Shown here piece after piece: positions 8,309-61,411 of a stretch of DNA of 64,000 nucleotides. The DNA lies in contig JAKIZI010000001.1 of assembly GCA_022708105.1 (NCBI GenBank), forward strand, positions 16,942 through 80,941, in the 5' to 3' direction. The notes under the pieces are model-generated. The model had not been told where the DNA came from and ran no database searches. It saw nothing but the letters and a program-made list of their open reading frames with translations. The number at the start of each line of letters is the position of its first letter. Positions within the stretch are counted from its first letter, which is position 1. The DNA comes from Bacteroidota bacterium. GTDB lineage: Bacteria > Bacteroidota > Bacteroidia > Bacteroidales > WCHB1-69. A program made the position numbers and the translations under genes.

Positions 8309-9784
8309 TTAATAAGCACGAGCAAAAAGCACTCTTTGGTGAGAAGGCTTTCCTGTTAAAATACATTTCCCCTCTTCCTTGGGTGCATCAAAAGGAATTG
8401 CACGAATTGTAGCTTTCGTTTTTTCTTTGATAAGTTCTTCTGTTTCTGCCGTCCCATCCCAATGAGCCAATACAAATCCAGGGTGGTTATCCAGGATGGA
8501 TACAAACTCTTCCCAAGTATCTGCTTTTCGGGTATTTTCTTCTCTAAATTTCAATGCTTTTTGATAAATATTTTGTTGAATTTCATCCAATAATGCTTGA
8601 ATATTCTCCGGCAATCCTTCCATAGACATGGATACTTTCTCAAGGGTATCCCTTCTGGCCACTTCCACTCTGTTTTGTTCTAAATCTCTCGGACCGATGG
8701 CAATTCTCACCGGAACCCCTTTCATTTCATATTCATTAAATTTCCATCCGGAGCGTTTTGAATCGTCATCATCATATTTCACTGTAATATTTTTAGCTTT
8801 AAGTTGACTTATCAAAGGTTCCACAACTGCAGAGATTGCTTGTAATTGTTCTTCTGTTTTATAGATTGGAATAATAACTACTTGCAAAGGTGCTAATTTT
8901 GGAGGCAACACCAAGCCGTTATCATCGGAATGTGTCATAATCAGTGCACCTATCAAACGGGTTGAAACGCCCCACGAAGTTGCCCATACATATTCCAATT
9001 GATTCTCTTTATTTAAAAATTTAACGTCAAAAGCTTTTGCAAAATTCTGACCAAGAAAATGAGAAGTTCCGGCTTGTAGGGCCTTTCCATCTTGCATGAG
9101 CGCCTCAATGCAATAGGTATCTTCTGCACCGGCGAACCGTTCATTGGGAGATTTATATCCTTTAATCACCGGAATACCCATAAAGTTTTCGGCAAAATCG
9201 GCATAAACATGTAACATTTTGCGCGTTTCTTCAATGGCTTCCTCACGAGTAGCATGAGCTGTATGTCCTTCCTGCCATAAAAACTCAGCAGTTCTAAGAA
9301 AAAGACGGGTACGCATTTCCCATCGCACCACATTTGCCCACTGATTACACAAAACAGGTAAATCTCTATAAGATTGAATCCAATTTTTATAAGTATCCCA
9401 AATGATCGTCTCTGAAGTTGGCCTTACAATTAATTCTTCTTCTAACTTTGCATCAGGATCCACAATGATACCGTCTCCATCAGGATTATTTTTCAATCGA
9501 TAATGCGTAATAACCGCACATTCCTTTGCAAATCCTTTAACATGACTGGCTTCTTTACTAAAAAAAGATTTAGGTATAAAGAGTGGGAAGTAGGCATTCA
9601 CATGACCAGTATCTTTAAACATTTTATCAAGAACAGACTGCATTTTCTCCCAAATGGCATATCCATAGGGTTTAATTACCATACATCCTCTTACTGCAGA
9701 ATTTTCAGCAAGATCAGCTTTTTTCACAATATCATTGTACCATTGTGCATAATTTTCTTCGCGTGTTGTAAAACTTTTCGCCAT
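8309..9784 (-). CDS. proS: proline--tRNA ligase (archaeal/eukaryote-like class II type)
   Basis: Start at [20 protein letters not shown], then class II motifs ([27 protein letters not shown]) and a C-terminal ProRS-C domain ending FARAY. The track start at 9856 adds 24 implausible residues. An ATG is present at 9784. Confidence 0.9.
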
Positions 9785-9893: not shown

Positions 9894-11693
9894 ATGAAAA
9901 AAAATATTTTTATCATAATTGCCATGACTGCATTCATCGCAACTTCATGTAAATTAGGCTCTTTAACCTATTATGATGACATATACACTACTTCCTCTGA
10001 CCAACAATATCAAAAAGTAAGTAAAGAAACTCAAGCTGTAACTTATTCTGAAGAGGCACCCCAATATCAATCGTATGAAAGTAATAATGGTTATTACGAT
10101 TATGAAGCAGATGCCAATAACAATTACAATAATAATGTTAATTATTCAGACTCCATTACTTATTACGAAGAAAGCGCAGGAAATACATATATCGTAAATA
10201 ATTATAATTATTATGATGAAGATGATTATTACGATTATTACTACACTTCTCGCATACGCCGTTTCCACAATGATTCATACACCAATTGGGGTTATTACGA
10301 TCCTTACTATACCAATTTGTATTGGTATGACTATTCACCTTCCAGTTGGGGAATGAGTATTTATTTAGGATATGATTGGTGGTGGCCGAACTCATATTAC
10401 CGTCCACATTATTATGGGTACGGATATTACTCATATGGTTTTAATTACGGATGGGGATGGGGATGTCATCGTCCTTACTGGGGAGGATATTGGAACGGAT
10501 ACAATAACGGTTATTATGATGGCTACTACGCAGGTTATTATGCTGGTTATTATCACAACTATTATGACAACAACCGCTCCTATTTCTACGGACACCGTAA
10601 TCGTATTGGAAGTTCGAATGGAATTGCAGCAAACAACAATTCAAGAGGCGAAAGACCTGAGGATTATGGAAGAGGAAGTAATGGGCCTGCTTCGGGTTCC
10701 ACCTCACATTCGTTAACTCCTGTAAGTTTCAATGAAAGATATGATCAAATTATAGCCAATGGAGCAACTTCTCATATTTCCGGAAATGGAACTTCAACTA
10801 TTGCAAATCAAAAAGCCACAAATCCTTCTACTCCTAAAACAGGAACTGCAACTGCAGTGAAAGAGATTGTTCCTCCTACCAATAACGCTCCTACAGGTGA
10901 AAAAACTAAAGTCGAAAATCCCATGCCCGGGAAGACTCCAGGAGTTAATTCAGGAACTAACAACGATGCTCGGGTAAATAAAACACCTCCGTCTAATACT
11001 ACACCATCTTCACCGACTGCCGGAACAAAACCGAATACTAATAACAATACTGCTCCAAACAAACAAACTCCTCCCACGAATGTAAACACAAATAGTAATC
11101 AAAATAGTCCTGTCAACAAAACGACACCAACACCTAATTACAACACACCACAGAGACAAGCTCCTTCTGCACCAAGGACAAATCCCACACCAAACAATCC
11201 TAACTATAATCGTCAAAGTACACCTCCTTCACGCAATACGGATTACAATCGGAGTAATACTGCCCCTTCTAACAGCAATCGTAATTATGATGGTTATCGT
11301 CCTTCAAATGCAAGACCAACCTATAATAGAGACAATAGCGGTTCTTCATATACCGCACCTTCTAATTCTTCCGGAAATTCGAGATACTCAGCACCCGCCA
11401 ACTCCAATTCTTCTTCACGTCCCTCTTATTCAACACCTCAAAATACCAATAGCAACTCTTCATACTCAAGACCTTCCAACTCTTCATCTAATCGCTCTTC
11501 ATACTCAAGTCCTTCCAACTCTTCATCCAATCGCTCTTCATACTCAAAACCTTCCAACTCTTCATCCAATCGTTCTTCGTATTCCGGATCAAGTAGTTCG
11601 TCAAGCAGATCTTCTTATTCTTCGCCAAGTTCTAGTCGCAGTTCCTCATCTTCATCTTCCGGTAGCAGCAGTTCCTCAAGAAGAGGCAGATAA
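9894..11693 (+). CDS. low-complexity lipoprotein (Tyr/Asn/Gly/Trp-rich, then Pro/Thr/Asn-rich, then Ser-rich repeat tail)
   Basis: Signal peptide plus lipobox (MKKNIFIIIAMTAFIATSC). The 599-codon ORF has strongly biased composition, and 13-aa repeats SYS.PSNSSSNRS are encoded by 39-bp DNA repeats. Alternative-frame ORFs here are compositional shadows. Confidence 0.65.
   Translation: MKKNIFIIIAMTAFIATSCKLGSLTYYDDIYTTSSDQQYQKVSKETQAVTYSEEAPQYQSYESNNGYYDYEADANNNYNNNVNYSDSITYYEESAGNTYIVNNYNYYDEDDYYDYYYTSRIRRFHNDSYTNWGYYDPYYTNLYWYDYSPSSWGMSIYLGYDWWWPNSYYRPHYYGYGYYSYGFNYGWGWGCHRPYWGGYWNGYNNGYYDGYYAGYYAGYYHNYYDNNRSYFYGHRNRIGSSNGIAANNNSRGERPEDYGRGSNGPASGSTSHSLTPVSFNERYDQIIANGATSHISGNGTSTIANQKATNPSTPKTGTATAVKEIVPPTNNAPTGEKTKVENPMPGKTPGVNSGTNNDARVNKTPPSNTTPSSPTAGTKPNTNNNTAPNKQTPPTNVNTNSNQNSPVNKTTPTPNYNTPQRQAPSAPRTNPTPNNPNYNRQSTPPSRNTDYNRSNTAPSNSNRNYDGYRPSNARPTYNRDNSGSSYTAPSNSSGNSRYSAPANSNSSSRPSYSTPQNTNSNSSYSRPSNSSSNRSSYSSPSNSSSNRSSYSKPSNSSSNRSSYSGSSSSSSRSSYSSPSSSRSSSSSSSGSSSSSRRGR
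11456..11572 (+). repeat. 3 x 39-bp near-perfect in-frame tandem repeat (13-aa unit SYS[RSK]PSNSSSNRS)
   Basis: Units at 11456-11494, 11495-11533 and 11534-11572 read ctcttcatactcaagNccttccaactcttcatcNaatcg. They differ at two or three positions, with degenerate copies on both flanks. Confidence 0.9.
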
Positions 11694-11743
11694 TTTACCA
11701 CATATAATTAATCATTAAAAAATCACACTATTAATTTATAATT

Positions 11744-13192
11744 ATGAAAAAGGGAATTTTTTTAATCAGCTTTATTTTATGCATTTTTTTTCTTAACACA
11801 AAAGGTCAAAATGACATAGATGCATTTAGATTTTCTCAAACAGATTGGAGTGGGACTGCAAGATTTATTGGAGCGGGGGGTGCTTTTGGTGCTGTAGGTG
11901 CTGAATTTTCAGCCTTAGCTACGAATCCGGCTTCGATTGGTGTGTTCAAAAAAAGTGAAGTTACTTTTACTCCATTGGTAGTTACCATTATGAATTCATC
12001 TTCATCGTATAACAAAAATTTATCCAAATATCTTTCCAATAATTATCATTTATCCAATGCAGGTGTTGTCTTGGCTTTTTCAACAAAGGAAACTTCCAAT
12101 TGGAAAGGAGTTCAATTTGGATTCGGGTATAATAGAATTGCTGATTTTAATAATGAACTCCGCATTGAAGGTACAAGTGCAAATAGTTCGATTATGGATG
12201 AATTTGTGAATGCAGCCAATCAATCAAGCAGAGATTTGTCTGAATCGGGACCTTTTGATACATACTTGGCTTGGAATACATGGCTACTGGATTATGATTC
12301 AACTCAAGGGGCATACTATAGTCCATTGGAAAAACAATCCTTAAAACAATCAAAATATATTCACACTAGCGGATCTATTGACGAGATGAATTTTTCATTA
12401 GGAGGAAATTACGGGGACAAATTATACCTTGGAGGAACTATTGGTGTTCCATTCATCAATTATATTGAAAAATCCACCTATGAAGAAGTAGATGAAACAG
12501 ATTCCATCGGAGGATTTGAAAATTTTGAGATGGAAGATTATTTATATACTCGAGGAACCGGAATTAATTTTAAAATAGGTCTTCTTTATCAACCTGTTGA
12601 TTTTATGCGTTTTGGGTTTGCCTTTCATACACCTACATTTTTCAATAGTTTAAAAGATACATACAGAAGAGATCTTATTGCCAATTATAGTGATAGAACT
12701 TACTCGGATGAATCTCCGGAGCAATATTACAGATACAAATTAACCACTCCTTTACGCATTATGGGTAATCTTGCTTTTTTTATAAAGAAAAGGGCATTTA
12801 TCAGTGCGGAATATGAATTTGCAAACTACGGAATGAGTTCATTATTTGCTAATGATTATTCCTTTTCGGATGAGAATCAAGACATTCGGAATAAATACGG
12901 AGCGCAACATTCTGTGAGAGTTGGCGGCGAAGTTGCCCTGAATGAAAATTTCTTAATAAGATTAGGATATAACTATAAAAGCAGTCCATATAAAGAAAAC
13001 ATCAATGATGGATCTTCTCATACTGCATCAGGAGGTATAGGATTCCGTAGCAAAAGTTTTTTCTTAGACCTTGCATATGCTTTAAAATTATCCAAAGAAA
13101 AATATTGGTTATATAATCCTATATATGTCAATGCAGCTGAAACTGAATATGCATATCACAAAATTGCTTTAACCGCAGGATTTAAATTCTAA
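11744..13192 (+). CDS. FadL/OmpP1-like outer-membrane beta-barrel protein
   Basis: Signal peptide. N-terminal stretch SGTARFIGAGGAFGAVGAEFSALATNPASIGVF resembles the FadL/TodX family hatch region. Alternating beta-strand pattern and a C-terminal aromatic residue (TAGFKF). Confidence 0.5.
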   Translation: MKKGIFLISFILCIFFLNTKGQNDIDAFRFSQTDWSGTARFIGAGGAFGAVGAEFSALATNPASIGVFKKSEVTFTPLVVTIMNSSSSYNKNLSKYLSNNYHLSNAGVVLAFSTKETSNWKGVQFGFGYNRIADFNNELRIEGTSANSSIMDEFVNAANQSSRDLSESGPFDTYLAWNTWLLDYDSTQGAYYSPLEKQSLKQSKYIHTSGSIDEMNFSLGGNYGDKLYLGGTIGVPFINYIEKSTYEEVDETDSIGGFENFEMEDYLYTRGTGINFKIGLLYQPVDFMRFGFAFHTPTFFNSLKDTYRRDLIANYSDRTYSDESPEQYYRYKLTTPLRIMGNLAFFIKKRAFISAEYEFANYGMSSLFANDYSFSDENQDIRNKYGAQHSVRVGGEVALNENFLIRLGYNYKSSPYKENINDGSSHTASGGIGFRSKSFFLDLAYALKLSKEKYWLYNPIYVNAAETEYAYHKIALTAGFKF

Positions 13193-17443: not shown

Positions 17444-18391
17444 TTACTTTTTGATCAATTTAGCCCTATAAATTGTTTGTTCGTCTTGAAGAACTTTAAC
17501 TAAATAAAAACCTGCTGAGAATTGCTCGATATTAATCGTATTGACCCCATTTTGCAGCAATTCGGATTTCAATAATTTTCCTGACATATCATACAGAAGC
17601 AGTTCTTGATTCCCTGAAACATCACTTGTTTGAACCATAAACGAATTCGCAGCGGGATTTGGTCCAAGAAGTACATTTGAATATGAGGAAGTTTGAATTG
17701 AAGAGGATTGCTGTTGGTCTATTACAGAAAAATCATCCACATAATAGGTGCCGAAGTTGGTACCTCCGGTTAAATTATCGAGACATCCTGCATAGAAATT
17801 AATAGCAGCAAGACGTTTGATTCCTTGCTCCGTACCGGCGGCAAGATTACTGAATTTCCAATTTTTAATTTGATTTCCGGCAATAGTTAACATAATAGAA
17901 TCCAAATCCAGATTAACATCCAATTGAACATCCATCCATGTATTAGGGGTAAACGTAAAAGGATTCTGAACTTCTTGCAAATAAAGAACTCCATTTCCGG
18001 CAGCATCCATATAGCATTCAAAAGCCCACTCGCTTGATGTTCCTGCCAGAGTATGCAGCATATTGAAATAAGCACCATTTCCGCTGGCTACAACATACCA
18101 CTTAAAAGATACCAAATAGTGACCTGTTGTCAGATTTCCGAAAGGATAAATAATGTCGTTGGTTCCAGTAATTTTAAGAGAATTGGGAAGAGACAAAGCA
18201 ATCTCTGTAGAGATCGTTGCATCATCACTTCCCCCCGGAGTTTCGCTCCATGTTGTCCAATTTGTAGGATTTTGCGCCGCCAACATTCCTCCGGCAGTGT
18301 AAGAATCAAAATTATCGCTAAAAACTACTGTTTGTGTCCACCCGACCATACTGGTCATCATGGCAATTAAAAAAAGATAAAATTTTTTCAT
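17444..18391 (-). CDS. secreted protein with T9SS type-A C-terminal sorting domain
   Basis: Signal peptide MKKFYLFLIAMMTSMVGWTQ from the ATG at 18391. C-terminal about 75 aa match the Por_Secre_tail pattern (GPNPAANSF...LLLYDMSGKLL...FSAGFYLVKV...AKLIKK). The track start at 18502 adds 37 implausible residues. Confidence 0.7.
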   Translation of the reverse strand: MKKFYLFLIAMMTSMVGWTQTVVFSDNFDSYTAGGMLAAQNPTNWTTWSETPGGSDDATISTEIALSLPNSLKITGTNDIIYPFGNLTTGHYLVSFKWYVVASGNGAYFNMLHTLAGTSSEWAFECYMDAAGNGVLYLQEVQNPFTFTPNTWMDVQLDVNLDLDSIMLTIAGNQIKNWKFSNLAAGTEQGIKRLAAINFYAGCLDNLTGGTNFGTYYVDDFSVIDQQQSSSIQTSSYSNVLLGPNPAANSFMVQTSDVSGNQELLLYDMSGKLLKSELLQNGVNTINIEQFSAGFYLVKVLQDEQTIYRAKLIKK

Positions 18392-18537
18392 AATCATAAT
18401 TTTTGGTGAATAATTATTGCAAGTATAATTAAAAAAAGTAATAAAACAAAAAAAAAGAAAAAAGAGATTCCTATTCAATATCATTGATTTTCTTACGTTC
18501 ACAATGTTATATAGTTGTTTTTTTGCTTAAAAAAATA

Positions 18538-45423: not shown

Positions 45424-46965
45424 ATGGAAAAAGAGCAATTTATAGACAATAAAAGAGAAAATAAAATTTCTTTTAACACGGTTGAAAGTACATTTGGACT
45501 TACCGGCAAGCTAACTCCGCAAGCCGTTGACTTTGAAGAGGCAATCTTAGGCGCTTTGATGATTGATAAAGATGCGATTGCCTACATTGACTTTATTTCA
45601 TCCAAGATGTTCTATAAAGAGCAACATCAATTTATTTTTCAAGCCATTGCAGAATTATTCCAAAATAGTCTTCCTATTGACTTATTAACGGTTACAGATG
45701 TTTTGCGCAAGAAAAAACGTCTTGAATTCGTGGGAGGCCCCTCCTATTTGGCCTCTTTGACCAACCGTGTCGCCTCTTCTGCCAACATTGAGTACCACGC
45801 CCGTGTGGTGATGGAAAAGTTTGTGCTCCGAGAGTTGATTGTGATCTGTACTTCAATTATTAAAGACTCATACGAAGATGCAAAAGATGTATTGCAATTA
45901 TTAGACAAGGCAGAAACAGACCTTTTCGGGATCATCCAAAACAATTTTAAACGCGACAGTAAGCCTTTGGACGATGTGGTGAAAAAAGCGCTCGAAGAAT
46001 TAATTGAACTCAAAAATAAAGATGAAAATTATCAAGGTGTCCCAACCGGAATAAAGGCCTTAGATGAAAAAATCGGGGGTTGGCAAAAGTCCGATCTCGT
46101 TATCTTAGCCGCACGACCTGGGATGGGGAAAACATCCTTTATTCTATCTATTGCCCGAAATGCAGCTTTGGATTTTAAAAAACCGGTGGCACTCTTTTCT
46201 CTTGAAATGTCTGCTACCCAGTTGGCACATCGTCTATTTTCCATGGAATCCGGAATCTCTTCCGAGCGCATTTCCAAAGGGAATTTGGATGAAACCGAGT
46301 GGATTCGATTGATGGATAAAATTCAGATATTAAATGCCGCCCCACTGTTCATTGACGACACTCCGGCGCTCAGTGTGTTCGATTTGCGAGCCAAGTGCCG
46401 GCGGTTGAAACACCAGCACGACATTCAGTTGGTGATGGTCGATTATTTGCAATTGATGCAAGGAAACTCCGAAGACAATAAAGGAAAAGGAAACCGGGAA
46501 CAGGAAATCAGTTACATCTCCCGGTCGCTCAAAGCTTTAGCCCGTGAACTGAACATCCCCGTCATTGCGTTGTCGCAGTTGTCTCGTGAAGTGGAAAAAC
46601 GCCCCGGCTCCAAACGTCCGCAGCTTTCCGACTTGCGTGAATCAGGATCCATCGAACAAGATGCCGATATGGTTATCTTTATTTACAGACCTGAATATTA
46701 CGGACTTACAACTTTTGAAAAGGATGATGTTCCCTCCGAAGGACTTGCCGACATTATGATTGAGAAAAACCGTCACGGCGCTAACGACCGGATTCGCGTG
46801 CGATTTATCAAACAATATACTAAATTTACCGATGTGGAAGAAGGCTACTCTTTCAAATCCAATGAAGCCATCCCGCTCAATGAGCATTTTGATACCGCCA
46901 CTTTCGAATCGAGCATGAACGATGAAGTGTCCACAGAGGGCGATGATTTTAACTATCCGTATTAA
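45424..46965 (+). CDS. dnaB: replicative DNA helicase
   Basis: EEAILGALMID, Walker A ARPGMGKTSF, SLEMS, VMVDYLQLM, SQLSREVEKR, SDLRESGSIEQDADMV. No intein-sized insertion (513 aa). Confidence 0.92.
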   Translation: MEKEQFIDNKRENKISFNTVESTFGLTGKLTPQAVDFEEAILGALMIDKDAIAYIDFISSKMFYKEQHQFIFQAIAELFQNSLPIDLLTVTDVLRKKKRLEFVGGPSYLASLTNRVASSANIEYHARVVMEKFVLRELIVICTSIIKDSYEDAKDVLQLLDKAETDLFGIIQNNFKRDSKPLDDVVKKALEELIELKNKDENYQGVPTGIKALDEKIGGWQKSDLVILAARPGMGKTSFILSIARNAALDFKKPVALFSLEMSATQLAHRLFSMESGISSERISKGNLDETEWIRLMDKIQILNAAPLFIDDTPALSVFDLRAKCRRLKHQHDIQLVMVDYLQLMQGNSEDNKGKGNREQEISYISRSLKALARELNIPVIALSQLSREVEKRPGSKRPQLSDLRESGSIEQDADMVIFIYRPEYYGLTTFEKDDVPSEGLADIMIEKNRHGANDRIRVRFIKQYTKFTDVEEGYSFKSNEAIPLNEHFDTATFESSMNDEVSTEGDDFNYPY

Positions 46966-46986
46966 GAATCCCTCTTTTCTAAAAAC

Positions 46987-47154
46987 ATATTGGGTACCTC
47001 TTTTTGACTTTACTCTATAACCTATCGAGATAATAACATCAAGGTTCTAGTATTCAATTTTTCTTTCGATCCTTCTTTCTCCTTCATTTTGAACTATCGC
47101 AAAAATTGCAATAGTTGAAGTTTTGTCAAGTTCTCCTTCCTCAAAAACATTTAT
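46987..47154 (-). pseudogene. relic of a RhuM-family (virulence/Fic-associated) gene, about 56 codons with an in-frame TAG
   Basis: The minus-strand translation is INVFEEGELDKTSTIAIFAIVQNEGERRIERKIEY*NLDVIISIGYRVKSKRGTQY. It matches the conserved RhuM core as I recall it (..IFEEGEL....V.KF..VQ.EG.R.V.R.I..YNLD.IISVGYRV.S.RGTQFR). The stop is at 47047-47049. No start and no remainder of the gene are present. Confidence 0.55.
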
Positions 47155-47164
47155 TGTTGTCCGG

Positions 47165-47201
47165 TAAAAAAAAGAACTGCATCTTAAAAAAGTGCAGTTC
47201 T
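47165..47201 (-). terminator. intrinsic terminator downstream of serA
   Basis: 9-bp stem agaactgca / tgcagttct (47173-47181 and 47193-47201). On the minus strand it is followed by a run of eight T (47165-47172). Confidence 0.75.
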
Positions 47202-47230
47202 CTAAATGTTTCCAAAACAAGCAAACAATT

Positions 47231-48151
47231 CTATTTGTTTACCTGGAATGTTTTGTCACCGGTAGCAAAGAATTTTACAATTTGATTTGCGGCTGCCAAT
47301 CCTGCGTTAATATTGGCTTCGGCCGTCTCAGCACCCATTTTCTTGGGGGTAGCAAAGAAACGATTCCCGAATTTTGCAACCATATCTTCCTTATTATCGG
47401 GAGCAATGTCGGTGCAGTATTTGAGGTCGGCTCTCTCTTCGAGCACTTTCAGCATTTCTTCTTCGTGAATTACCTCTTTACGGGCGGTGTTGATCAAACA
47501 TCCACCTTTCGGCATCATGGAGAGCAATTTGTAGCCGATTGACTTTTTAGTTTGCTCATTGGCCGGAATATGAAGAGAAATGAAGTGGCAAGTCTTGTAA
47601 AGCTCTTCCACCGTATTCACCGGAATAATGCCGTCGGTTTTCATCTTTTCTGCAGGTACAAATGGGTCGAAAGCATACACTTCCATTCCAAATCCTTTGG
47701 CAATTTTGGCAGCAAGGCTTCCTACATGGCCATAGGCGTGGATTCCCAATTTTTTACCTTTAAGCTCTGTTCCCGTGCCGGGATTGAAAGCATTGCGGGA
47801 CATATACACCATCATTCCAAGGGCCAATTCAGCCACAGCGTTGGAGTTTTGACCGGGTGTATTCATGGCCACAATATTATTGGCAGTACAAGCAGCAAGG
47901 TCGAGGTTGTCGAAACCTGCACCGGCACGAACCACAATCTTAAGATTCTTCCCTGCATCAATCACTTGAGCCGTAACCTTATCGGAACGAACAATCAATG
48001 CATCCACATCGGCAACTGCCTTGTAGAAATCCTGCACATCGGCATATTTTTCCAATAACACCAATTCGAATTTTGCTTTTTCCACGATTTCGCGAATCCC
48101 GTCAACGGCGGTTTTGGCGAAAGGTTTTTCTGTTGCTAATAATACTTTCAT
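47231..48151 (-). CDS. serA: D-3-phosphoglycerate dehydrogenase (D-isomer 2-hydroxyacid dehydrogenase family)
   Basis: NAD-binding GIHAYGHVGSLAAKIAKGFGMEV, catalytic-region pattern NTARKEVI, and position directly downstream of serC. The ATG at 48151 (MKVLLATEKPF) is preferred over the track TTG at 48181, which would overlap serC. Confidence 0.8.
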   Translation of the reverse strand: MKVLLATEKPFAKTAVDGIREIVEKAKFELVLLEKYADVQDFYKAVADVDALIVRSDKVTAQVIDAGKNLKIVVRAGAGFDNLDLAACTANNIVAMNTPGQNSNAVAELALGMMVYMSRNAFNPGTGTELKGKKLGIHAYGHVGSLAAKIAKGFGMEVYAFDPFVPAEKMKTDGIIPVNTVEELYKTCHFISLHIPANEQTKKSIGYKLLSMMPKGGCLINTARKEVIHEEEMLKVLEERADLKYCTDIAPDNKEDMVAKFGNRFFATPKKMGAETAEANINAGLAAANQIVKFFATGDKTFQVNK

Positions 48152-48161
48152 GATATTAATT

Positions 48162-49235
48162 TTATTTATGTAATTTTTCAAATTTCTGCATACATTCTAC
48201 AAGAGCTTTAACACTATCGATAGGACAAGCATTGTAGAGAGACGCACGGAAGCCGCCCACGGAGCGGTGTCCTTTGATACCTACCATACCGTTTTCCTTG
48301 GCAAATGCCATGAAAGCATCTTCTTTGTCTTTATAGCCTTCGGCCATCACAAAACAAATATTCATCACGGAACGGCTCTCTTTTTCGGCAGTACCAACAA
48401 ACATAGGATTGCGGTCGATTTCATTGTACAGCAAGTCAGCTTTTTCCTTATTTATTTTTTGGATGGCTTTCAGTCCGCCACATCTTTTAACCCATTTCAA
48501 TGTTTCATTCATCACAAGAATTGAAAATACCGGAGGCGTATTGAACATGGAACCGTTTTCTATATGGGTTTTGTAATTTAACATCGTCGGTAAATAGCGA
48601 GATACTTTGCCGAGGGCATCTTCTTTCACAATAACAAATGTAACGCCGGCAGGACCTACATTCTTTTGTGCACCACCATAAATCATCACATATTTAGACA
48701 CATCCACCGGACGACTCATGATATCGGAAGACATATCGGCGATTAATGGAATAGGGCTGGTGATATCTTCGTGGATTTCGGTTCCGTAAATGGTGTTGTT
48801 GGTAGTAATATGAAAATAATCGGCATCCGTAGGAATGGTATATCCTTTAGGAATGTAGTTAAACGTCGTATCAGCCGAAGATGCAACGCAAACAGCTTCG
48901 CCAATGCCTTTGGCTTCTTTCAGTGCCTTCTTTGCCCAAACTCCGGTTTCAAGATAGGCCGCTTTTTTTTCCAAAAAGTTCATGGCCACCATCAGGAATT
49001 GCAAGGATGCACCGCCACCGAGAAATAAAACTTTGTAGCCATCGGGAATATTCAAAATCTCTTTCCACAAGGCCTCAGTTTCATCCATCACGGCTTGCCA
49101 CTCTTTCGAGCGATGAGAAACTTCAATTACCGACATTCCGGTTCCGGCAAAATCTTTCAACGCCTCAATTGCATTATTGATTGCTTCTTTGGGGAGGACA
49201 CAAGGTCCAGCATTAAAATTATGTACCTGTTTCAT
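48162..49235 (-). CDS. serC: phosphoserine aminotransferase
   Basis: [27 protein letters not shown] and [14 protein letters not shown] (PLP lysine region). Confidence 0.9.
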
Positions 49236-49350
49236 AATAAGATGTTTATGTTTATAATTAATACGTCATATTCTGTGGCAAAGATACACGATTTTTTGGA
49301 TTAACCTACTCTAAAAAAATAATTTAACTATTAAACTCGAAAGAAAAAAC

Positions 49351-49358
49351 TATTTTTG
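49351..49358 (+). promoter_or_regulatory. Bacteroidota -7 promoter box (TAnnTTTG)
   Basis: TATTTTTG lies 20 nt upstream of the ATG at 49379. Confidence 0.5.
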
Positions 49359-49378
49359 CACTCTTAATTTTAAATACC

Positions 49379-50608
49379 ATGCCTCTGCCCATTATTACGC
49401 TTCAAAACGGAATAAAATTGATTCATCAGGAGATCAATTCTCCGATTGCTCACTTCGGCATTTTGGTCAATGCCGGTACCCGCGATGAGACGGAAAATAA
49501 GATGGGATTAGCCCATTTTGTAGAACATACTATTTTTAAAGGAACTAAAAAACGAAAAGGATACCAAATCTTAAAACGACTCGAAAATGTCGGGGGGGAA
49601 CTCAATGCCTGCACTTCGAAAGAAGAAACTTACTTCCACGCCTCTTTCCTGTCGCAAGATTATCCCCGCGTCTTAGAACTATTGTCGGATATCTTTTTTA
49701 ATTCTACCTTCCCCGCGAAAGAACTCGAAAAGGAAAAAGATGTGATTCTCGAAGAAATTAACTACTACAAAGATACGCCCTCCGAATTTATTTTCGACGA
49801 ATTTGAAAGCGTCCTATTCTACAAGCATCCTTTAGCCATGAATATTCTCGGAACTAAAAAGTCGGTGAAAAATATAGGGCAAGCGGATATTTTCGATTTT
49901 ATAAAGAGGCAATATACGCCGGAACATATTGTGCTCTCATCCGTGGGACAAATCGACATACACCGGCTGCAAAAGCTTTGCGATCGCTATTTTGCGACAC
50001 ACGACTTTCATAGCGGAACGCGAGACCGACAGCCGTTCACCAAATACACCCCCCAAGCGGTTCGCAAACATAAATCAATTTCTCAATCGCATATTATGTT
50101 GGGCAATATCGCCTATTCGATACAGGACGACCGCAAAAATCCGTTTCTATTGCTCACCAATTTACTCGGCGGACAAGGAATGAGTACGCGGCTGAACATG
50201 GCTATTCGCGAAAAACGAGGATTGGCTTATTCCGTCGAAGCCAATTTCGTTCCGTTTTCGGATACCGGGCTCTTTAGCATCTATATCGGATGCGACCATG
50301 AGATGATTGATAAATGTATTGAATTGACATATAAAGAGTTGAATAATCTTGCAACCCAAAAGTTAGGGACTTTGCAACTTCATTATGCCAAAAAACAACT
50401 CATCGGACAAATGGCGATTTCGAGTGAATCAAAACTCAATGAAATGCTTACCAATGGACGTAGTGCGCTCTTTTTTGATGAAGCGGATACGTTAGAAGAG
50501 GCCATTCAAAAAGTCGAAATCATTACCGCAGAGGATATTTTGGTCGTAGCGAATGAGATTTTTCAACGCGAGCAATTCTCAACGCTCATCTATTCCGGTC
50601 GCCAATAA
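49379..50608 (+). CDS. M16-family (pitrilysin/insulinase-like) zinc peptidase
   Basis: Inverted zinc motif HFVEHTIFKG (HxxEH), a downstream Glu region, and two-domain size of about 410 aa. Confidence 0.8.
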   Translation: MPLPIITLQNGIKLIHQEINSPIAHFGILVNAGTRDETENKMGLAHFVEHTIFKGTKKRKGYQILKRLENVGGELNACTSKEETYFHASFLSQDYPRVLELLSDIFFNSTFPAKELEKEKDVILEEINYYKDTPSEFIFDEFESVLFYKHPLAMNILGTKKSVKNIGQADIFDFIKRQYTPEHIVLSSVGQIDIHRLQKLCDRYFATHDFHSGTRDRQPFTKYTPQAVRKHKSISQSHIMLGNIAYSIQDDRKNPFLLLTNLLGGQGMSTRLNMAIREKRGLAYSVEANFVPFSDTGLFSIYIGCDHEMIDKCIELTYKELNNLATQKLGTLQLHYAKKQLIGQMAISSESKLNEMLTNGRSALFFDEADTLEEAIQKVEIITAEDILVVANEIFQREQFSTLIYSGRQ

Positions 50609-53314: not shown

Positions 53315-54703
53315 ATGGCGAAATTAAAATCTTCATTTTTTTGCAAAAATTGTGGTGCACAATCGGCTAAATGGATGGGACGTTGTCCCTCATGTGGCGA
53401 ATGGAATACGTTTGAGGAGGAGATTTTAGTCCGTGCAGACCCACCCAAAGGAAAATCTTCCGGAATGGGTATTCCTTCCTCTCCAAAGTTAATTGAGGAT
53501 ATTTCGCTTACGGAATTGCCCCGACTTAAATCAGGATTTCGAGAACTGGATGGGGTGCTGGGCGGCGGTATTGTGCGTGGCTCCATCATTCTGCTTGGAG
53601 GTGAACCCGGTATCGGAAAATCTACCTTATTGCTGCAAATGGCTATGGCCCTATCTGATACAAAGGTACTTTATGTTTCGGGTGAGGAGAGTGAAAGTCA
53701 GTTGAAAATGCGGGCAGAACGATTAGAAATCAATACCAACACAGAACATTGTTATATCCTTACGGAAACCAATACGCAAGAGATTTTTCAACATATCGAC
53801 CAACTTCGGCCGGATGTAATTATCATTGATTCCATACAAACGTTACAGAGCAACTTATTGGATTCTGCTTCTGGTTCAATTTCACAAATCAAGGAGTGTG
53901 CAGCGGAATTTCAGCACTTGGCAAAGACAACGGCCATCCCCGTCTTCTTAATTGGTCATATTACCAAAGATGGCACATTGGCCGGTCCGAAGATTTTGGA
54001 ACATATTGTGGATACGGTGTTGCAATTTGAAGGCGATCAACATTACGGATACAGGATTGTGCGTTGCACCAAGAACCGGTTCGGCTCTACTTCAGAGTTG
54101 GGTATTTTTGAGATGACCGGGAACGGTTTGCGCGAGGTTCTCAACTCTTCGGAAATATTGTTGTCTCAGCGGGACGAGGATTTTAGCGGAAATGCTATTG
54201 CGGCGATTCTTGAAGGAAATCGACCTTTGATGATTGAGACACAAGCACTGGTCAGCTCGGCAGTTTATGGCATGCCGCAGCGCTCCGCCACCGGATATGA
54301 TATTCGACGCATGAACATGTTGCTGGCAGTATTAGAAAAACGCTGTCGTTTCAAATTAGGAGCTAAAGATGTATTTATCAATATTGCCGGTGGTATTCAT
54401 GTGGAAGATCCGGCCATTAATCTCTCTATTGTAGCCGCTATTCTTTCTTCGGTCACCGACATTCCGATAGATGCCAAAACCTGCTTTGCGGGTGAAATGG
54501 GATTAAACGGAGAAATTCGTGCGGTAACTCGCATCGAACAGCGAATTACCGAAGCCGATAAATTGGGCTTTACCCGAATATTCCTTTCCAAATATAATAT
54601 GAAAGGACTGAAACAGAATCAATTTGGGATAGAACTCATTCCTATTGGGAAAATCGATGAAATCTTTGCGTTGCTTTTCGAACCCAGGGAAAGCAAATCC
54701 TGA
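53315..54703 (+). CDS. radA: DNA repair protein RadA/Sms
   Basis: Zinc finger CKNCGAQSAKWMGRCPSCGEWNT, Walker A GGEPGIGKSTL, the KNRFG motif, and a Lon-protease-like C-terminal domain. Confidence 0.92.
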   Translation: MAKLKSSFFCKNCGAQSAKWMGRCPSCGEWNTFEEEILVRADPPKGKSSGMGIPSSPKLIEDISLTELPRLKSGFRELDGVLGGGIVRGSIILLGGEPGIGKSTLLLQMAMALSDTKVLYVSGEESESQLKMRAERLEINTNTEHCYILTETNTQEIFQHIDQLRPDVIIIDSIQTLQSNLLDSASGSISQIKECAAEFQHLAKTTAIPVFLIGHITKDGTLAGPKILEHIVDTVLQFEGDQHYGYRIVRCTKNRFGSTSELGIFEMTGNGLREVLNSSEILLSQRDEDFSGNAIAAILEGNRPLMIETQALVSSAVYGMPQRSATGYDIRRMNMLLAVLEKRCRFKLGAKDVFINIAGGIHVEDPAINLSIVAAILSSVTDIPIDAKTCFAGEMGLNGEIRAVTRIEQRITEADKLGFTRIFLSKYNMKGLKQNQFGIELIPIGKIDEIFALLFEPRESKS

Positions 54704-54764
54704 TAATTTCTTAGAATTGCTTTGAACTCGAATAAAGGTAAAATGAACGAAAAAAAATATAAAT

Positions 54765-55484
54765 TTACTTAATTTTGAGGAGATCCTCCGGAGTGTCAAT
54801 GGCTATATTTTCATGGAAACACTCGGCCACGGAAATGGAATAGCCGTAGTCGATCCAGCGGAGTTGTTCCAACTTTTCGGCTTCTTCTAAGGACGATTTC
54901 GGGAGCAGGATTAATTCCTTCAGCGTTTTATACCTATAAGCGTAAATGCCGATATGTTTGTATCGATTTACCGAAACCGAAGATTCATCACGGACAAACG
55001 GAATCGGAAACCTGCTGAAATAGATAGCTTGATGCTTTTGAGAGAAGAGCACTTTCACCATATTGGGATTTTGAACATCCTCCGTCGCGGGGTCTATTTT
55101 TTTTACAAGGGTGGCAATCCGGACTTGCTCCGATTTAAATTCGGCCATCAGCAATTCAATCTCCTCTTTTCGAATAAAGGGTTCATCGCCCTGAATATTG
55201 ATGACCACATCCTCCTCCGTCAGTCCGAGCAAACGAGCAGCTTCGCCGCAGCGGTCGGTTCCGGAGGGATGTTCCGGAGAAGTCATCACCACTTCTCCCC
55301 CAAAATCGAGAACAACTTTCCGAATGCGCTCATCATCGGTAGCAACAACTACTTTGCTTAAGGAAGCACTGTTTACTTGTTCATACACCCATTGAATCAT
55401 GGGCTTCCCTTTAATCAGGGCTAATGGTTTTCCTGGAAAACGGGAAGAGGCGTAGCGTGCCGGGATAATACCTATAAAAGCCAT
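54765..55484 (-). CDS. kdsB: 3-deoxy-manno-octulosonate cytidylyltransferase (CMP-KDO synthetase)
   Basis: IIPARYASSRFPGKPL, VVVATDDERI, INIQGDEPF, HIGIYAYR. Confidence 0.88.
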   Translation of the reverse strand: MAFIGIIPARYASSRFPGKPLALIKGKPMIQWVYEQVNSASLSKVVVATDDERIRKVVLDFGGEVVMTSPEHPSGTDRCGEAARLLGLTEEDVVINIQGDEPFIRKEEIELLMAEFKSEQVRIATLVKKIDPATEDVQNPNMVKVLFSQKHQAIYFSRFPIPFVRDESSVSVNRYKHIGIYAYRYKTLKELILLPKSSLEEAEKLEQLRWIDYGYSISVAECFHENIAIDTPEDLLKIK

Positions 55485-55496
55485 AATCCGGTATGT

Positions 55497-56114
55497 TTAT
55501 TTGAAAAGGCCGTATAGTTCGGCATTAATTTTTTCGATTACAATACCAAAATCTTCGGCTTTTTCTCCAAATTTGATCGTATTAACATCCACAACAAGGA
55601 GTTTTCCTCTGTTGTAGTTATTAATCCAATTTTCATATCGTTCATTAAGATGTTGCAAGTAGTCGATTCGGATTGAATTTTCATAGTCTCGACCTCTTTT
55701 TTGAATTTGAGCGACCAACGTTGAGGTATCTGCTTTGAGATAGATGAGCAGGTCGGGGGCTTGCAGGAATTGAGCCATCAGTTCAAAGAGAGAGGCATAA
55801 TTTTCAAAATCTCGCGTAGGCATAAGTCCCATAGCATGAAGATTCGGGGCAAAAATGTAAGCATCTTCGTATATTGTTCGGTCTTGAATTACATCTTTTT
55901 TCTTCTGTCGAATTTCGATAACTTGTCGAAAGCGATTATTCAAGAAGTAAACTTGCAAATTAAAAGACCAACGTTGCATGTCTTCATAAAAACTTGCAAG
56001 GTAGGGATTATTGTCTACACTTTCGTACATGGGCTCCCATCCGTAATGTTTGGCCAGCATGTTGGTTAGTGTGGTTTTTCCAGAACCGATGTTTCCTGCT
56101 ACAGCGATATGCAT
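55497..56114 (-). CDS. deoxynucleoside kinase
   Basis: P-loop IAVAGNIGSGKTTL and a dNK-family ERS-like region (QDRTIYED) with the lid region. Confidence 0.8.
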   Translation of the reverse strand: MHIAVAGNIGSGKTTLTNMLAKHYGWEPMYESVDNNPYLASFYEDMQRWSFNLQVYFLNNRFRQVIEIRQKKKDVIQDRTIYEDAYIFAPNLHAMGLMPTRDFENYASLFELMAQFLQAPDLLIYLKADTSTLVAQIQKRGRDYENSIRIDYLQHLNERYENWINNYNRGKLLVVDVNTIKFGEKAEDFGIVIEKINAELYGLFK

Positions 56115-56192
56115 AAAATATATGATTAAATTTATAAAAATTGATAATATCAGAGGGTTGAAATGGTTTGTGACAAAGATAAAAAAAAATGT

Positions 56193-58190
56193 TTATTCCG
56201 TCAGATTATTTTTTGTTTTTGTTTTCAGAGAGTGTGATACAAGATAGGTGCATAGTAGAAGGAACATAACGATAGACAACACATTAAACGGAGCAGAGCC
56301 GATCCATTGTGCCGAAATATTCGGTTCAATTCCGGCATATTTAAGGATGGCGCTCACAACTCCCATGATAGCTCCGCCGGCCAACAATCCCGAAGCGAGC
56401 AGGGTCCCTTTTTCTTTACGTGCTTTATTGAGTGCTTCGTTTTTACTTCTGCTGCTAATCAGCCAAGCGATAAATCCACCCACGAGCAATGGAATATTCA
56501 GTTGAAGCGGAATAAACATCCCTAGAGAGAACGCAAGAGCAGGAATGCCGATACGGTCAAGGACGATAGCGAGGATAGCCCCGATGATATAGAGCATCCA
56601 AGGGGTTTGTCCTCCGAACATTAGCGGTTCGATGATGGCAGCCATGGCGTTGGCTTGTGGAGCTACTAACGAATTTTCACCGGTGTATCCGTAAGTTTTG
56701 GAAAGAATAATGATTACACCGCCTACCGTCAGAGCAGAAACAAACGTTCCGAGGAACTTGAGGGCTTGTTGTTTATATGGAGAAGAACCTATCCAGTAGC
56801 CGATTTTAAGGTCAGTGATAAAGCCCCCGGCCATAGCCAACGCAGAGCATACAATCCCGCCCACGATCAAGGCCGTTATAATCCCGGTTCCGCCTTGTAA
56901 ACCCACTGCAGACAAAATAAATGAAGAGAGAATCAGCGTCATCATGGTCATCCCTGACACAGGGTTGGTTCCTACGGTAGCAATGGCCGTTGCAGCTACT
57001 GTCGTAAAGAGAAACGCAAAAATAAAAATAACCAGAAGTCCCACAATTATTTGGGTAAGATTCATACTCAAACCACCAAACAAAAAGAATACGAAAATAA
57101 GCAGTGCCACGGCAAGGAATCCAAAGAGAATAATTTTCATAGAGATATCTCGTTGGGTTCTCAGTATTTTATGGTCATCGTCGTCGTGTTTGGATTTACT
57201 TGCTTTAAAAACCACTCCGAAAGAAGACTTAATCACCCCTGCGGATTTGATTACCCCAATAATTCCGGCCATTGCGATCCCACCGATGCCGATATATCTT
57301 ACATAGTTAGAAAATATCATTTCGGGGTCGAGGGTTTGCATCAGAATGCCGTCTGCGGTTACTCCGTATTGTCCGAGCAAGGGCACGATAAACCACCATG
57401 AGAGCAAGGAACCAGCGCAAATAATCACCGAATATTTGAGTCCTATCAGGAAGCCCGTACCGAGCAGAATGGAACCGGCATTCATTTTAAATACAAATTT
57501 GTAGTCCATGGCCAATTTTTCTCCGAAAGAGGACATCCGAGAGGAGATATTTTCTGCCCACAGTTGGAAGGTCGTCATAAGGAAATCGTAAAGACCACCG
57601 ATGAGCCCACTGATTAGCAATAATTTAGCTTGAGAGCCCCCTTTGGCACCGGAAACTAAAATTTCGGTGGTAGCCGTTGCTTCGGGGAAGGGATACTTCC
57701 CGTGCATATCGGAAACAAAATATTTCCTAAAAGGAATGAGGAACAAAATCCCGAGAAAACCACCGAAAAGGGAGGCTAAGAATATTTGGAAGAAGTTGAT
57801 TTGCATATTGATATCGGGATTCTTCTCCTGGATGATGTATATTGCCGGGAGTGTAAAGATGGCTCCGGCGACAATCACACCCGAACTTGCTCCGATGGAT
57901 TGTATAATCACATTCTCAGAGAGAGGGCTTTTGCGTTTAGCCACAGTGGAGATGCCCACCGCGATAATGGCAATGGGAATGGCGGCCTCGAACACTTGTC
58001 CGAATCGTAGCCCCGAGTAAGCTGTTGCCGCGGAAAAAATTACGGCCATCAGGATTCCCCAAAGGACGGTCCATGTATTGATTTCAGGATATTTTTTAGA
58101 GGAGAGTAAAACCGGTTTGTATTCTTCGCCCTCTTTCAGTTCAGAATAGGCGTTATCGGCTAATTTAATTTCTTTTTCTTCTTCTGCCAT
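56193..58190 (-). CDS. OPT-family oligopeptide transporter
   Basis: 665-aa polytopic membrane protein. The N-terminal region (ELKEGEEYKP...TWTVLWGILMAVIFSAATAYSGLRFG) and overall pattern resemble the OPT superfamily. Confidence 0.75.
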   Translation of the reverse strand: MAEEEKEIKLADNAYSELKEGEEYKPVLLSSKKYPEINTWTVLWGILMAVIFSAATAYSGLRFGQVFEAAIPIAIIAVGISTVAKRKSPLSENVIIQSIGASSGVIVAGAIFTLPAIYIIQEKNPDINMQINFFQIFLASLFGGFLGILFLIPFRKYFVSDMHGKYPFPEATATTEILVSGAKGGSQAKLLLISGLIGGLYDFLMTTFQLWAENISSRMSSFGEKLAMDYKFVFKMNAGSILLGTGFLIGLKYSVIICAGSLLSWWFIVPLLGQYGVTADGILMQTLDPEMIFSNYVRYIGIGGIAMAGIIGVIKSAGVIKSSFGVVFKASKSKHDDDDHKILRTQRDISMKIILFGFLAVALLIFVFFLFGGLSMNLTQIIVGLLVIFIFAFLFTTVAATAIATVGTNPVSGMTMMTLILSSFILSAVGLQGGTGIITALIVGGIVCSALAMAGGFITDLKIGYWIGSSPYKQQALKFLGTFVSALTVGGVIIILSKTYGYTGENSLVAPQANAMAAIIEPLMFGGQTPWMLYIIGAILAIVLDRIGIPALAFSLGMFIPLQLNIPLLVGGFIAWLISSRSKNEALNKARKEKGTLLASGLLAGGAIMGVVSAILKYAGIEPNISAQWIGSAPFNVLSIVMFLLLCTYLVSHSLKTKTKNNLTE

Positions 58191-58424
58191 AAGTATATAT
58201 TTTTTAGAAAATAGTGCTACAAAAATAAAATAAAAAGTTGAACATACAAGAAAAAAAAGAGATAAAATAACTTTTATCGGGATTGTTAGAAGCGCCCTGA
58301 AAAGTTAATGTTTTAAGGGTAATGAGGTTTATCTGAGATTATTTGTAGATTGGTAGTGTTTCAAAAGATGAAATAGTCTGTTGCACCTTTTATACTATAT
58401 ATTGTATTAATCAGAATAAACCCA

Positions 58425-58432
58425 TATTTTTG
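58425..58432 (+). promoter_or_regulatory. Bacteroidota -7 promoter box (TAnnTTTG)
   Basis: TATTTTTG lies 12 nt upstream of the ATG at 58445, which argues against the track TTG start at 58430. Confidence 0.45.
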
Positions 58433-58444
58433 TGCACAAAAAAT

Positions 58445-59410
58445 ATGGGCATGAAAACCATAAAAGAATTTAAAGGATTAGCCGGTATATCAAAGAAATT
58501 TGAAAATTACAACTGGCTTTATTCCCTTATTATTTGTGCTTGTTTTTTCCCATTTATGTCACCGGCAATTGCTTTATTTATTGGCTTACTGTTTTCTATT
58601 ATCGGACTCAGGCATGAAAATTTACATAAGTACACCTCAAAAATTCTTCAGGCATCCATAGTTTTAATGGGTTTCGGGATGAGTCTTGAAACTGTAATTT
58701 CATCCTCAAAAACGGGTTTTATGGAGACGATTGTTTCTGTAACTACGGTCATGTTATTAGGGATTTTCCTGGGAAGATTGTTTAAAGTTGAAAAAAATAT
58801 TGCATTGCTTATTTCTACGGGAACGGCTATTTGTGGAGGAAGTGCCATCGCTGCTGTGGCACCGATACTTAACAGCAAAAACTATCAAACCTCGTTTGCA
58901 CTTATCGTAGTTTTTGTGCTGAATGCAGTAGCTTTATTTTTGTTCCCGTTTATCGGACATCAATTAGGGTTAAGTCAGGAAACTTTCGGAAATTGGGCGG
59001 CCATTGCTATTCATGATACCAGTTCGGTGGTTGGTGCCGGGGCAATTTATGGGGAACAGGCATTGCAGGTAGCTACCACGGTAAAACTTATCCGGGCTTT
59101 GTGGATTATTCCGTTAGCCCTCGTAATTGCACTTATGACTAAAGGCGGAGAAAAAAAATCAATTAAATTTCCATGGTTTATTTTGTTTTTCGTATTAGCC
59201 ATTTTATTTGCCCATATATTCCCCATATTCGAGACAAGTTACGAGCATTTTAACTGGTTAGGCAAACGCGGAATGGTGATTGCTTTATTTCTGATAGGTT
59301 CAAATATCACCGTAAATGAAATTAAACAATCAGGAACAAAAAGTTTTGTATTTGGAATTATTTTATGGATTGTTATTACTCTGGGTTCGTTGTTTTTTTT
59401 AACACGATGA
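58445..59410 (+). CDS. YeiH/UPF0324-family putative sulfate exporter
   Basis: About 320-aa polytopic membrane protein with GTAICGGSAIAAVAP and AIHDTSSVVGA motifs. Confidence 0.65.
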   Translation: MGMKTIKEFKGLAGISKKFENYNWLYSLIICACFFPFMSPAIALFIGLLFSIIGLRHENLHKYTSKILQASIVLMGFGMSLETVISSSKTGFMETIVSVTTVMLLGIFLGRLFKVEKNIALLISTGTAICGGSAIAAVAPILNSKNYQTSFALIVVFVLNAVALFLFPFIGHQLGLSQETFGNWAAIAIHDTSSVVGAGAIYGEQALQVATTVKLIRALWIIPLALVIALMTKGGEKKSIKFPWFILFFVLAILFAHIFPIFETSYEHFNWLGKRGMVIALFLIGSNITVNEIKQSGTKSFVFGIILWIVITLGSLFFLTR

Positions 59411-61384: not shown

Positions 61385-61411
61385 AAATCCTTGTCATTTT
61401 CATTTTTTTCT

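Follow-up and report, generated by a model that had tools for sequence, protein, structure and literature searches.

A tandem pair of envelope genes

We describe here a pair of adjacent genes from a Bacteroidota bacterium (lineage WCHB1-69), which lie in a stretch of 64,000 nucleotides (nt) from assembly GCA_022708105.1, contig JAKIZI010000001.1, positions 16,942 to 80,941 of the forward strand. We refer to this whole stretch as the window, and coordinates given without a locus identifier are positions within it. The first gene encodes a lipoprotein of 599 residues whose composition is extreme, and the second encodes an outer-membrane barrel of 482 residues. A first-pass annotation had identified both open reading frames (ORFs), the first of them with its lipobox, and had placed them at 9894-11693 and 11744-13192; these coordinates are exact. 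The lipoprotein gene is divided as follows.

9894-11693, plus strand: lipoprotein gene, 599 residues. The product belongs to a Bacteroidia family that has no annotation; most of the chain is disordered, its head is acidic and rich in Tyr, and its tail is a basic stretch of Ser, Thr, Asn, Pro and Arg.
9894-9950, plus strand: signal peptide with lipobox (…IATS-C19), beginning MKKNIFIIIAMTAFIATSC; read directly from the translation.
9951-10013, plus strand: segment following the Cys, KLGSLTYYDDIY, which carries the conserved YDD(I/V)Y (alignments A1 and A3).
10209-10613, plus strand: conserved aromatic core, residues 106-240, consisting of DDYYDYYYTSRIRRFH … YYDPYYTNLYWY … WGMSIYLGYDWWWP …, then GYY repeats and, at its end, YHNYYDNN.
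10614-10793, plus strand: short linker with a second motif, (S/T)F(N/G)(E/D)(R/K)Y(D/N), which reads SFNERYDQI in the window (from translations and the alignment).
10794-11303, plus strand: variable linker rich in Pro, Thr and Asn, residues 301-470, net charge +12 (from composition).
11304-11693, plus strand: basic Ser-rich tail, residues 471-599, with 51% Ser, a net charge of +13 and the end SSSSRRGR.

The window holds 50 ORFs of 150 residues or more, and among them the lipoprotein is an extreme outlier in Tyr (z-score +3.3), Ser (+4.6), aliphatic residues (-4.0) and sequence entropy (-4.6). Asn, Gln, Tyr, Gly and Ser together account for 55% of the protein. The three compositional zones recognized at first pass are confirmed by these analyses: Tyr makes up 30% of residues 106-240, with Gly at 13% and Trp at 7%; Asn (20%), Thr (18%) and Pro (17%) lead in residues 301-470; and the Ser-rich tail includes a tandem repeat of 39 nt (13 residues) that is present in 3.2 copies at 94% identity (11456-11578).

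A constrained motif within a low-complexity protein

An ORF of this kind might be spurious, or its low complexity might have arisen by chance. We reject both possibilities: 489 species-level genomes encode a relative or an intact orthologous ORF, and close orthologs share 77-95% identity across the core. The N-terminal 260 residues, used as a query, retrieve 147 relatives, and a profile of the core retrieves 245. A HMMER scan of 1.84 billion representatives yields 896 clusters (50% identity) at E≤1e-3 and 558 at 1e-10, and the architecture is uniform throughout that scan, with the core beginning at approximately residue 60-160 in proteins of 230-706 residues. Across the loci whose neighborhoods we examined, the length of the lipoprotein ranges from 419 to 869 residues. 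The closest relative is found in a metagenome-assembled genome (MAG) of the Lentimicrobiaceae, where the lipoprotein is 90%, the barrel 95% and the neighboring prolyl-tRNA synthetase (ProRS) 96% identical to that of the window, which places the window in this lineage of the Bacteroidales.

No Pfam or NCBIfam family matches the window lipoprotein or three of its relatives at E-values of up to 1. Precomputed Pfam annotation is likewise empty for all homologs listed except P0165, whose assignment to PF17780 is probably a compositional match, and our literature searches found no description of the family.

The conservation of the family is concentrated in specific places. The lipobox Cys fills at least 90% of its alignment column and is present in all 59 of the full-length members that we surveyed for architecture, charge and the residues after the Cys; one relative, P0143, is without it. 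About ten residues past the Cys lies the motif YDD(I/V)Y, in which D28 is nearly invariant (at least 90%) and D29 and Y31 are invariant in alignment A1. The core contributes 26 invariant columns to the same alignment, in the pattern D-Y-D..Y..R..RF … YY…T.YWY … G.SIY..Y.WW … Y.N..D, and the tail of the family is unalignable and ends in GGRR-like residues. Since the core is so highly conserved among close orthologs, whereas the Pro/Thr/Asn-rich linker retains an identity of 18-32% with many insertions and deletions, these alignments indicate that the low complexity of the protein conceals a strongly constrained sequence motif. The term prion-like, applied to the protein at first pass, is therefore apt as a description of its composition and inapt for the core, whose sequence is strongly conserved as a motif, in contrast to a low-complexity region that drifts.

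The distribution of charge is also conserved. The head is acidic in 59 of 59 members (median -14, with 23% Tyr) and the tail is basic in 59 of 59 (median +23, with 63% Ser, Thr, Asn and Pro and 8% Arg). The C-terminal residue is Arg in 57 members, and the final two are both Arg in 46.

Four relatives (P0223, P0230, P0207 and P0177) carry long His runs, such as HHHHHHHHPHH, at approximately residues 170-225, where the window protein has its GYY/GWG repeats. These runs could be the product of Tyr-to-His drift at TAY/CAY codons, or they could represent a metal-binding variant.

We modeled the lipoprotein with AlphaFold2, using 83 sequences. The model has a predicted local distance difference test score (pLDDT) of 47.5 and a predicted TM-score (pTM) of 0.16, with no autonomous fold, and within the core the pLDDT remains below 50 except in a low-confidence helix over DDYYDYYYTSRIRRFH. 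We thus reject the presence of an autonomously folded head domain. The core is strongly conserved, with its 26 invariant columns, and yet scores poorly in isolation, as would be expected of a segment that acquires its fold through a partner or the membrane. Such ordering would fit the segment W-G-x-S-I-Y-L-G-Y, which shows a strict alternation of hydrophobic and small residues with Trp/Tyr clusters on both sides, as well as the possible interfacial helix. The cognate barrel would be the obvious candidate for the partner.

A distinct clade of FadL-fold barrels

The barrel gene and its hatch lie at the following positions.

11744-13192, plus strand: gene for a FadL-fold outer-membrane barrel, 482 residues, with an N-terminal hatch (Pfam PF03349, AlphaFold2 and Foldseek).
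11807-11950, plus strand: hatch region of the barrel, with mature N-terminus Q22-NDIDAFRFSQ… and NPA at residues 61-63 (conservation table and FadL alignment).

The barrel had been called FadL-like at first pass, and both profile and model bear this out. Its match to the Pfam family Toluene_X (PF03349) scores 36 bits, which passes the gathering cut-off of 29.7, and the barrels P0090 and L174 match the same family. The AlphaFold2 model (pLDDT 87.2, pTM 0.82) consists of N-terminal helices followed by an array of strands, the barrels of solved family members having 14. When this model is compared with the PDB by Foldseek, the top match is BamG of B. thetaiotaomicron (9hiv_F, E=1.4e-16); FadL, TodX, TbuX and the BamG chains of P. 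gingivalis and F. johnsoniae match at 1e-11 to 1e-15 with 9-14% identity. The matches to FadL, TodX, TbuX and BamG have a probability of 1.00 and TM-scores of 0.5-0.66. Sequence and profile searches of the PDB return marginal matches to FadL homologues alone (3dwo and TbuX 3bry).

Conservation in the barrel is highest in the N-terminal hatch: N61 and P62 are found in 40 of 40 sequences, and A63 in 39 of 40. When the barrel is aligned with FadL of E. coli (sequence from NC_000913.3), its NPA falls on that of FadL and its F28 on FadL Phe3, and its mature N-terminus extends that of FadL by 4 residues.

We considered three named groups to which the barrel might belong, and we reject all of them. 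In the case of BamG, the NCBIfam model NF053685, whose cut-off is 250 bits, gives a score of 41.8, and the distant orthologs of the barrel (Flavobacteriales-labelled, marine and soil) show no BamG match. BamG is, moreover, recognizable by 10-12 additional N-terminal residues, which run through the lateral opening (PMC12578637); the barrel has its 4 residues instead. In the case of PorV and PorQ (NF033709 and NF033711), the barrel reaches 34.9 bits with the PorV_fam model, whose cut-off is 90, and 31.2 bits with the PorQ model, whose cut-off is 220, and PorV is missing from the 50 Foldseek matches listed. Thus, given that these scores fall below their cut-offs and that the distant orthologs do not match BamG, we conclude that the barrel belongs to a distinct, unnamed clade of the FadL superfamily, with more than 1,800 relatives. 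The first-pass annotation had raised the possibility that the barrel would fall in a transport subfamily of known substrate, and it does not. To judge from its sequence, the hatch resembles those of transport-competent FadL channels more closely than that of BamG.

Conservation of the gene pair

Two further features bear on the relationship between the genes.

11694-11743, plus strand: intergenic spacer, 50 nt, AT-rich.
8309-9784, minus strand: proS, encoding ProRS, a divergent conserved neighbor for which we claim no functional link.

We looked for a terminator-like hairpin in the spacer and found none; since the genes are separated by only these 50 nt without a terminator, they are probably co-transcribed.

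We then ask how often the two genes occur together elsewhere, which the first-pass annotation had itself proposed as a test of its reading. On the lipoprotein side, we collected 80 species-dereplicated loci, of which 69 are evaluable and 11 cannot be judged for the barrel. The barrel is directly 3' of the lipoprotein gene, on the same strand, in 48 of the 69, with a median gap of 41 nt (range 14-325). The complete block, with proS divergent from the lipoprotein gene and the barrel gene following, is present in 5 of 6 distant loci examined. Its carriers are three MAGs, labelled Flavobacteriales, Sphingobacteriaceae and (from activated sludge) Bacteroidetes, and two contigs, one from soil and one marine. 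In the Flavobacteriales-labelled MAG the genes are 3 nt apart and the barrel aligns along its entire length at 33% identity (E=4e-89). The outer flanking genes of the distant blocks differ from those of the Bacteroidales.

In a neighbor-joining tree of 121 barrels, those that are unpaired form approximately three coherent clades: one next to a GH3 gene, one next to miaA in which the lipoprotein is missing, and a third that is small. Because these clades are nested among paired barrels, and the distant paired loci fall outside them, the tree indicates that the pairing is ancestral and has been broken a few times. The raw counts, which by themselves would suggest a loose association, are inflated because termite and rumen lineages are densely sampled. 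A weaker point is that some lipoprotein loci without a barrel (L065, for example) and barrel loci lacking the lipoprotein (L006) share a termite metagenome as their source, though perhaps not a genome, which is consistent with relocation and not loss. The gene pair is thus conserved, as the first-pass annotation had required, although its description of the module as dedicated is too strong, given that the genes are unlinked in several lineages.

The distances among lipoproteins and among barrels co-vary beyond what is accounted for by ProRS (partial r=0.72, Mantel p approximately 0.001), which lends weak support to a partnership.

Predicted topology of the lipoprotein

In Bacteroidota, the export signal of surface lipoproteins consists of at least two acidic residues among the six positions that follow the Cys (PMC5080379, PMC12578637), and the position of this signal is critical (PMC5080379). 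Among the 59 full-length members, none has two or more acidic residues at +1 to +6; 17 have one and 42 have none. The invariant DD sits at +10/+11. Since no member carries the signal, the rule predicts that the lipoprotein faces the periplasm, unless the barrel offers it another route.

A proposed module of barrel and cognate lipoprotein

We lean, tentatively, towards the following interpretation: the two genes would form an ancient envelope module of the Bacteroidia, in which a FadL-fold barrel is accompanied by a cognate outer-membrane lipoprotein, in analogy to BamG-BamH. The lipoprotein would be held by its N-terminal lipid and would be intrinsically disordered when alone. Its invariant aromatic core would dock onto or into the barrel, or into the surrounding membrane, and would become ordered only there. 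The docking parts would be a putative interfacial helix (DDYYDY.Y..RIRRFH) and an amphipathic segment resembling a beta-strand (WG.SIYLGY), placed between Trp/Tyr 'girdles'. The tail of Pro, Thr, Asn, Ser and Arg, with a net charge of approximately +24 and its RR end, would be a flexible polycationic chain, which could engage anionic polymers or lipids of the envelope. The default topology of such a module would be periplasm-facing, and surface exposure would require that the barrel carry part of the chain across. There is precedent in the phylum for FadL-like barrels as docking platforms, namely BamG with BamH and PorV with its cargo (PMC12611786, PMC12578637).

It is important to weigh this interpretation against the possibility that the genes are independent neighbors, which we consider rather unlikely, if still a serious contender. 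On that account the barrel is a self-sufficient, FadL-type hydrophobic channel, the lipoprotein is an unrelated periplasm-facing protein (such as a flexible polycation that reaches peptidoglycan or the inner membrane as a tether or spacer), and the two are kept together by an old gene order around proS. Several of our results point this way, and hence away from a cognate module. The barrel has what looks like a working FadL hatch, with the invariant NPA, the Phe3 equivalent and the 4-residue extension, as would befit a transporter that needs no partner, and the structures of FadL and TodX match its model about as well as does BamG. In 21 of the 69 evaluable lipoprotein loci there is room for the barrel and yet none is present, the genes there being unrelated. 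From the barrel side the count is lower still: among 80 metagenome loci, 52 of them evaluable, the lipoprotein gene is upstream in 21, and the remaining 31 have varied genes in its place, including T9SS (type IX secretion system) cargo, a GH3-type enzyme and small unrelated genes. The gene for ProRS is the divergent upstream neighbor in 69 of 78 lipoprotein loci, so that the junction of proS with the lipoprotein gene is conserved at least as well as the junction of the lipoprotein gene with the barrel, and some of the linkage of the pair could therefore be inherited gene order. (We searched for an RNA element or tRNA that might lie behind the adjacency to proS, and found none.) The co-variation of distances reported above is weak as a mirror-tree signal for a similar reason, because ProRS evolves much more slowly and the correlation may reflect that rate. 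Finally, the complete lack of export signals among the 59 members suits a lipoprotein that acts in the periplasm by itself.

Three considerations nevertheless keep us from adopting independence. Same-strand gaps of 3-60 nt persist from the Flavobacteriales-labelled MAG to the Bacteroidales while the outer flanks change, which would be unusual for unrelated genes; the unlinking is restricted to a few clades; and a conserved core that does not fold needs a binding partner, for which no other candidate is evident.

The first-pass annotation had proposed, instead, a surface-displayed protein of adhesive, matrix or phase-separating character, with the barrel as a dedicated device for its export or anchoring. 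Much about the lipoprotein is suggestive of this: the acidic, Tyr-rich head, the Arg-bearing basic tail and the preponderance of Asn, Gln, Tyr, Gly and Ser; the conserved pairing with an outer-membrane barrel; and the recent expansion of the 39-nt repeat together with the wide range of lengths, both of which are frequent in surface proteins. A flexible extracellular loop of Bacteroidota BamA is rich in Tyr, Gly and Asn as well, so that such a composition does occur on the surface side (PMC12578637). However, the export signal, whose position matters, is absent from every member surveyed, and Pfam finds no T9SS C-terminal domain (Por_Secre_tail) in the lipoprotein, which ends in low-complexity sequence. 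Heavy general O-glycosylation of the tail is likewise unlikely, as there is about one sequon, D(S/T)(A/I/L/V/M/T), per protein. Moreover, the lumen of a FadL barrel is plugged by the conserved hatch, which makes export of a polypeptide through it unlikely, and the core is a fixed motif where a prion-like composition would be expected to drift. We therefore regard surface display as improbable, and with it the adhesive role proposed at first pass.

A variant of the cognate-module interpretation, which we offer as a long shot, treats the lipoprotein as a novel organizer of the envelope, a lipid-anchored and disordered 'block' protein with an acidic head of Tyr/Trp stickers and a basic Arg/Ser tail. 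Its one conserved amphipathic strand would insert beside or through the barrel without the need for an export signal. The tail, driven by Tyr-Arg contacts, would assemble at the outer membrane into a brush or a condensate, and would thereby gate or condition a channel for lipids or other hydrophobic molecules that the Bacteroidia have conserved.

Lastly, it is highly improbable that the barrel is a BamG-type accessory of the beta-barrel assembly machine (BAM) or of another Omp85 machine, with the lipoprotein as a BamH-like client or subunit: BamG is its best match in both Foldseek and NCBIfam, and one lineage has an Omp85-like gene beside an unpaired barrel, but the BamG score is far below cut-off and is not shared by distant orthologs, the long N-terminal extension is absent, the lipoprotein has neither a BamH-like fold nor an export signal, and the Omp85-like neighbor is confined to two loci, L005 and L006.

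Relation to known systems

The pairing of a FadL-like barrel with a lipoprotein is already known in kind; the lipoprotein family described here, on the other hand, is undescribed. The closest parallel is BamG-BamH, a 14-stranded barrel of the FadL fold with a lipoprotein, whose paralogs BamG2 and BamH2 are likewise encoded by adjacent genes, Bt1785 and Bt1786 (PMC12611786, PMC12578637). The parallel extends to structure, in that the BamG of B. thetaiotaomicron is the top structural match of the window barrel, and it ends at the features by which we rejected that identity, namely the model cut-off and the extension. The lipoproteins differ more profoundly: BamH is a folded surface protein with an export signal, whereas the window lipoprotein is disordered, with no detectable fold and no such signal.

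With FadL, TodX and TbuX (PF03349) the window barrel shares the fold, the N-terminal hatch, the NPA, the Phe3 equivalent and a match above the Pfam threshold. It is, however, only 10-14% identical to them and belongs to a distinct Bacteroidia clade that has no NCBIfam name, and it has a conserved cognate lipoprotein gene upstream, whereas the FadL systems of proteobacteria do not. PorV and PorQ are comparable as FadL-like barrels of Bacteroidota that bind partners; the window barrel matches their models weakly, and in some lineages its relatives lie downstream of T9SS cargo. Nonetheless, it falls far short of their cut-offs, and its lipoprotein lacks the T9SS C-terminal domain.

In composition alone, the nearest parallel to the lipoprotein is extracellular loop EL3 of BamA, a Tyr/Gly/Asn-rich segment of 38 residues, flexible and structurally unresolved, in the outer membrane of the same phylum (PMC12578637). 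EL3 is a loop within BamA, in contrast to the separate lipoprotein of the window.

Other systems are analogous in concept, through composition or architecture and without homology. RcsF is a lipoprotein whose disordered linker is threaded through the barrels OmpA/C/F, and FUS-like Tyr/Arg proteins and FG-nucleoporins are built from aromatic 'stickers', spacers of polar residues and blocks rich in Arg.

The outer membrane of Bacteroidota is built around complexes of barrels and lipoproteins (SusCD, BamG-BamH, PorV). The pair described here is widespread, from Flavobacteriales-labelled MAGs to Bacteroidales, and wholly unannotated. Its lipoprotein partner offers a conserved aromatic motif within a disordered, charge-segregated chain in place of a folded domain. 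If the two proteins do interact, they would add a third docking system to those built on FadL-like barrels, one whose structural type is new, and would provide a tractable case of a conserved disordered protein in the bacterial envelope. If they do not, two families will still have been newly defined, and the pair would illustrate, as a warning, that deeply conserved synteny can exist without function.

Other genes at related loci and in the window

Several other genes recur near the pair or near its unpaired members. A secreted protein of about 260 residues is encoded on the same strand approximately 10 nt past the barrel in 31 pair loci of a single Bacteroidales clade (for example, L014:8151-8933 on the plus strand, L022, L026, L053 and L070). 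It has a signal peptide and weak hints of a beta-propeller, received no family assignment, and may be a third member of the operon in that clade. We reject it as a general partner of the pair, given its confinement to these loci and its absence from the 64-kb window.

In two termite-gut loci (L005:7484-9043, plus strand, and L006:6570-8129), a 519-residue Omp85-like protein is encoded 1 nt past an unpaired barrel (P0090). Its POTRA match is weak, at 16.8 bits, and the arrangement recalls that of BamG and BamA. It is found in neither the window nor any other locus, and we reject it, too, as a general partner.

Outside the Bacteroidales, a protein of about 225 residues is encoded after proS and on its strand (L170:2735-3409, minus strand; L172:1676-2362; L173:1631-2326; L174:1737-2405), which enlarges the conserved block there to four genes. 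This protein lacks a signal peptide and is matched by neither Pfam nor NCBIfam, and neither the window nor the Bacteroidales loci encode a homolog.

Among the lipoprotein loci that have no barrel, a small lipoprotein of approximately 136-139 residues, ending in …DYDEFDSTR, often follows the disordered one after about 10-60 nt (L023:6729-7139, L050:7380-7799, L052, L057, L064 and L085). In the unpaired clade adjacent to miaA, conversely, the barrel lies 120-260 nt past a T9SS cargo gene on the same strand, which encodes a protein of approximately 1,250-1,480 residues with Cleaved_Adhesin, CarboxypepD_reg and Por_Secre_tail domains. This arrangement is seen at L087:414-4808, at L088:373-4809 and in 10 metagenome loci (L101-L109, L115, L143, L144).

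Within the window itself, the GC content is 0.40-0.44 at 46001-50000 and 54001-64000, as compared with 0.31-0.39 across most other parts, and neither rRNA nor any other Rfam family was found in these two regions. The GC skew becomes positive at approximately 58-62 kb. Finally, the 352-residue ORF at 17444-18502 on the minus strand has a C-terminus, …GFYLVKVLQDEQTIYRAKLIKK, which on reading resembles a type-A C-terminal sorting domain of the T9SS and suggests that the organism possesses such a system.

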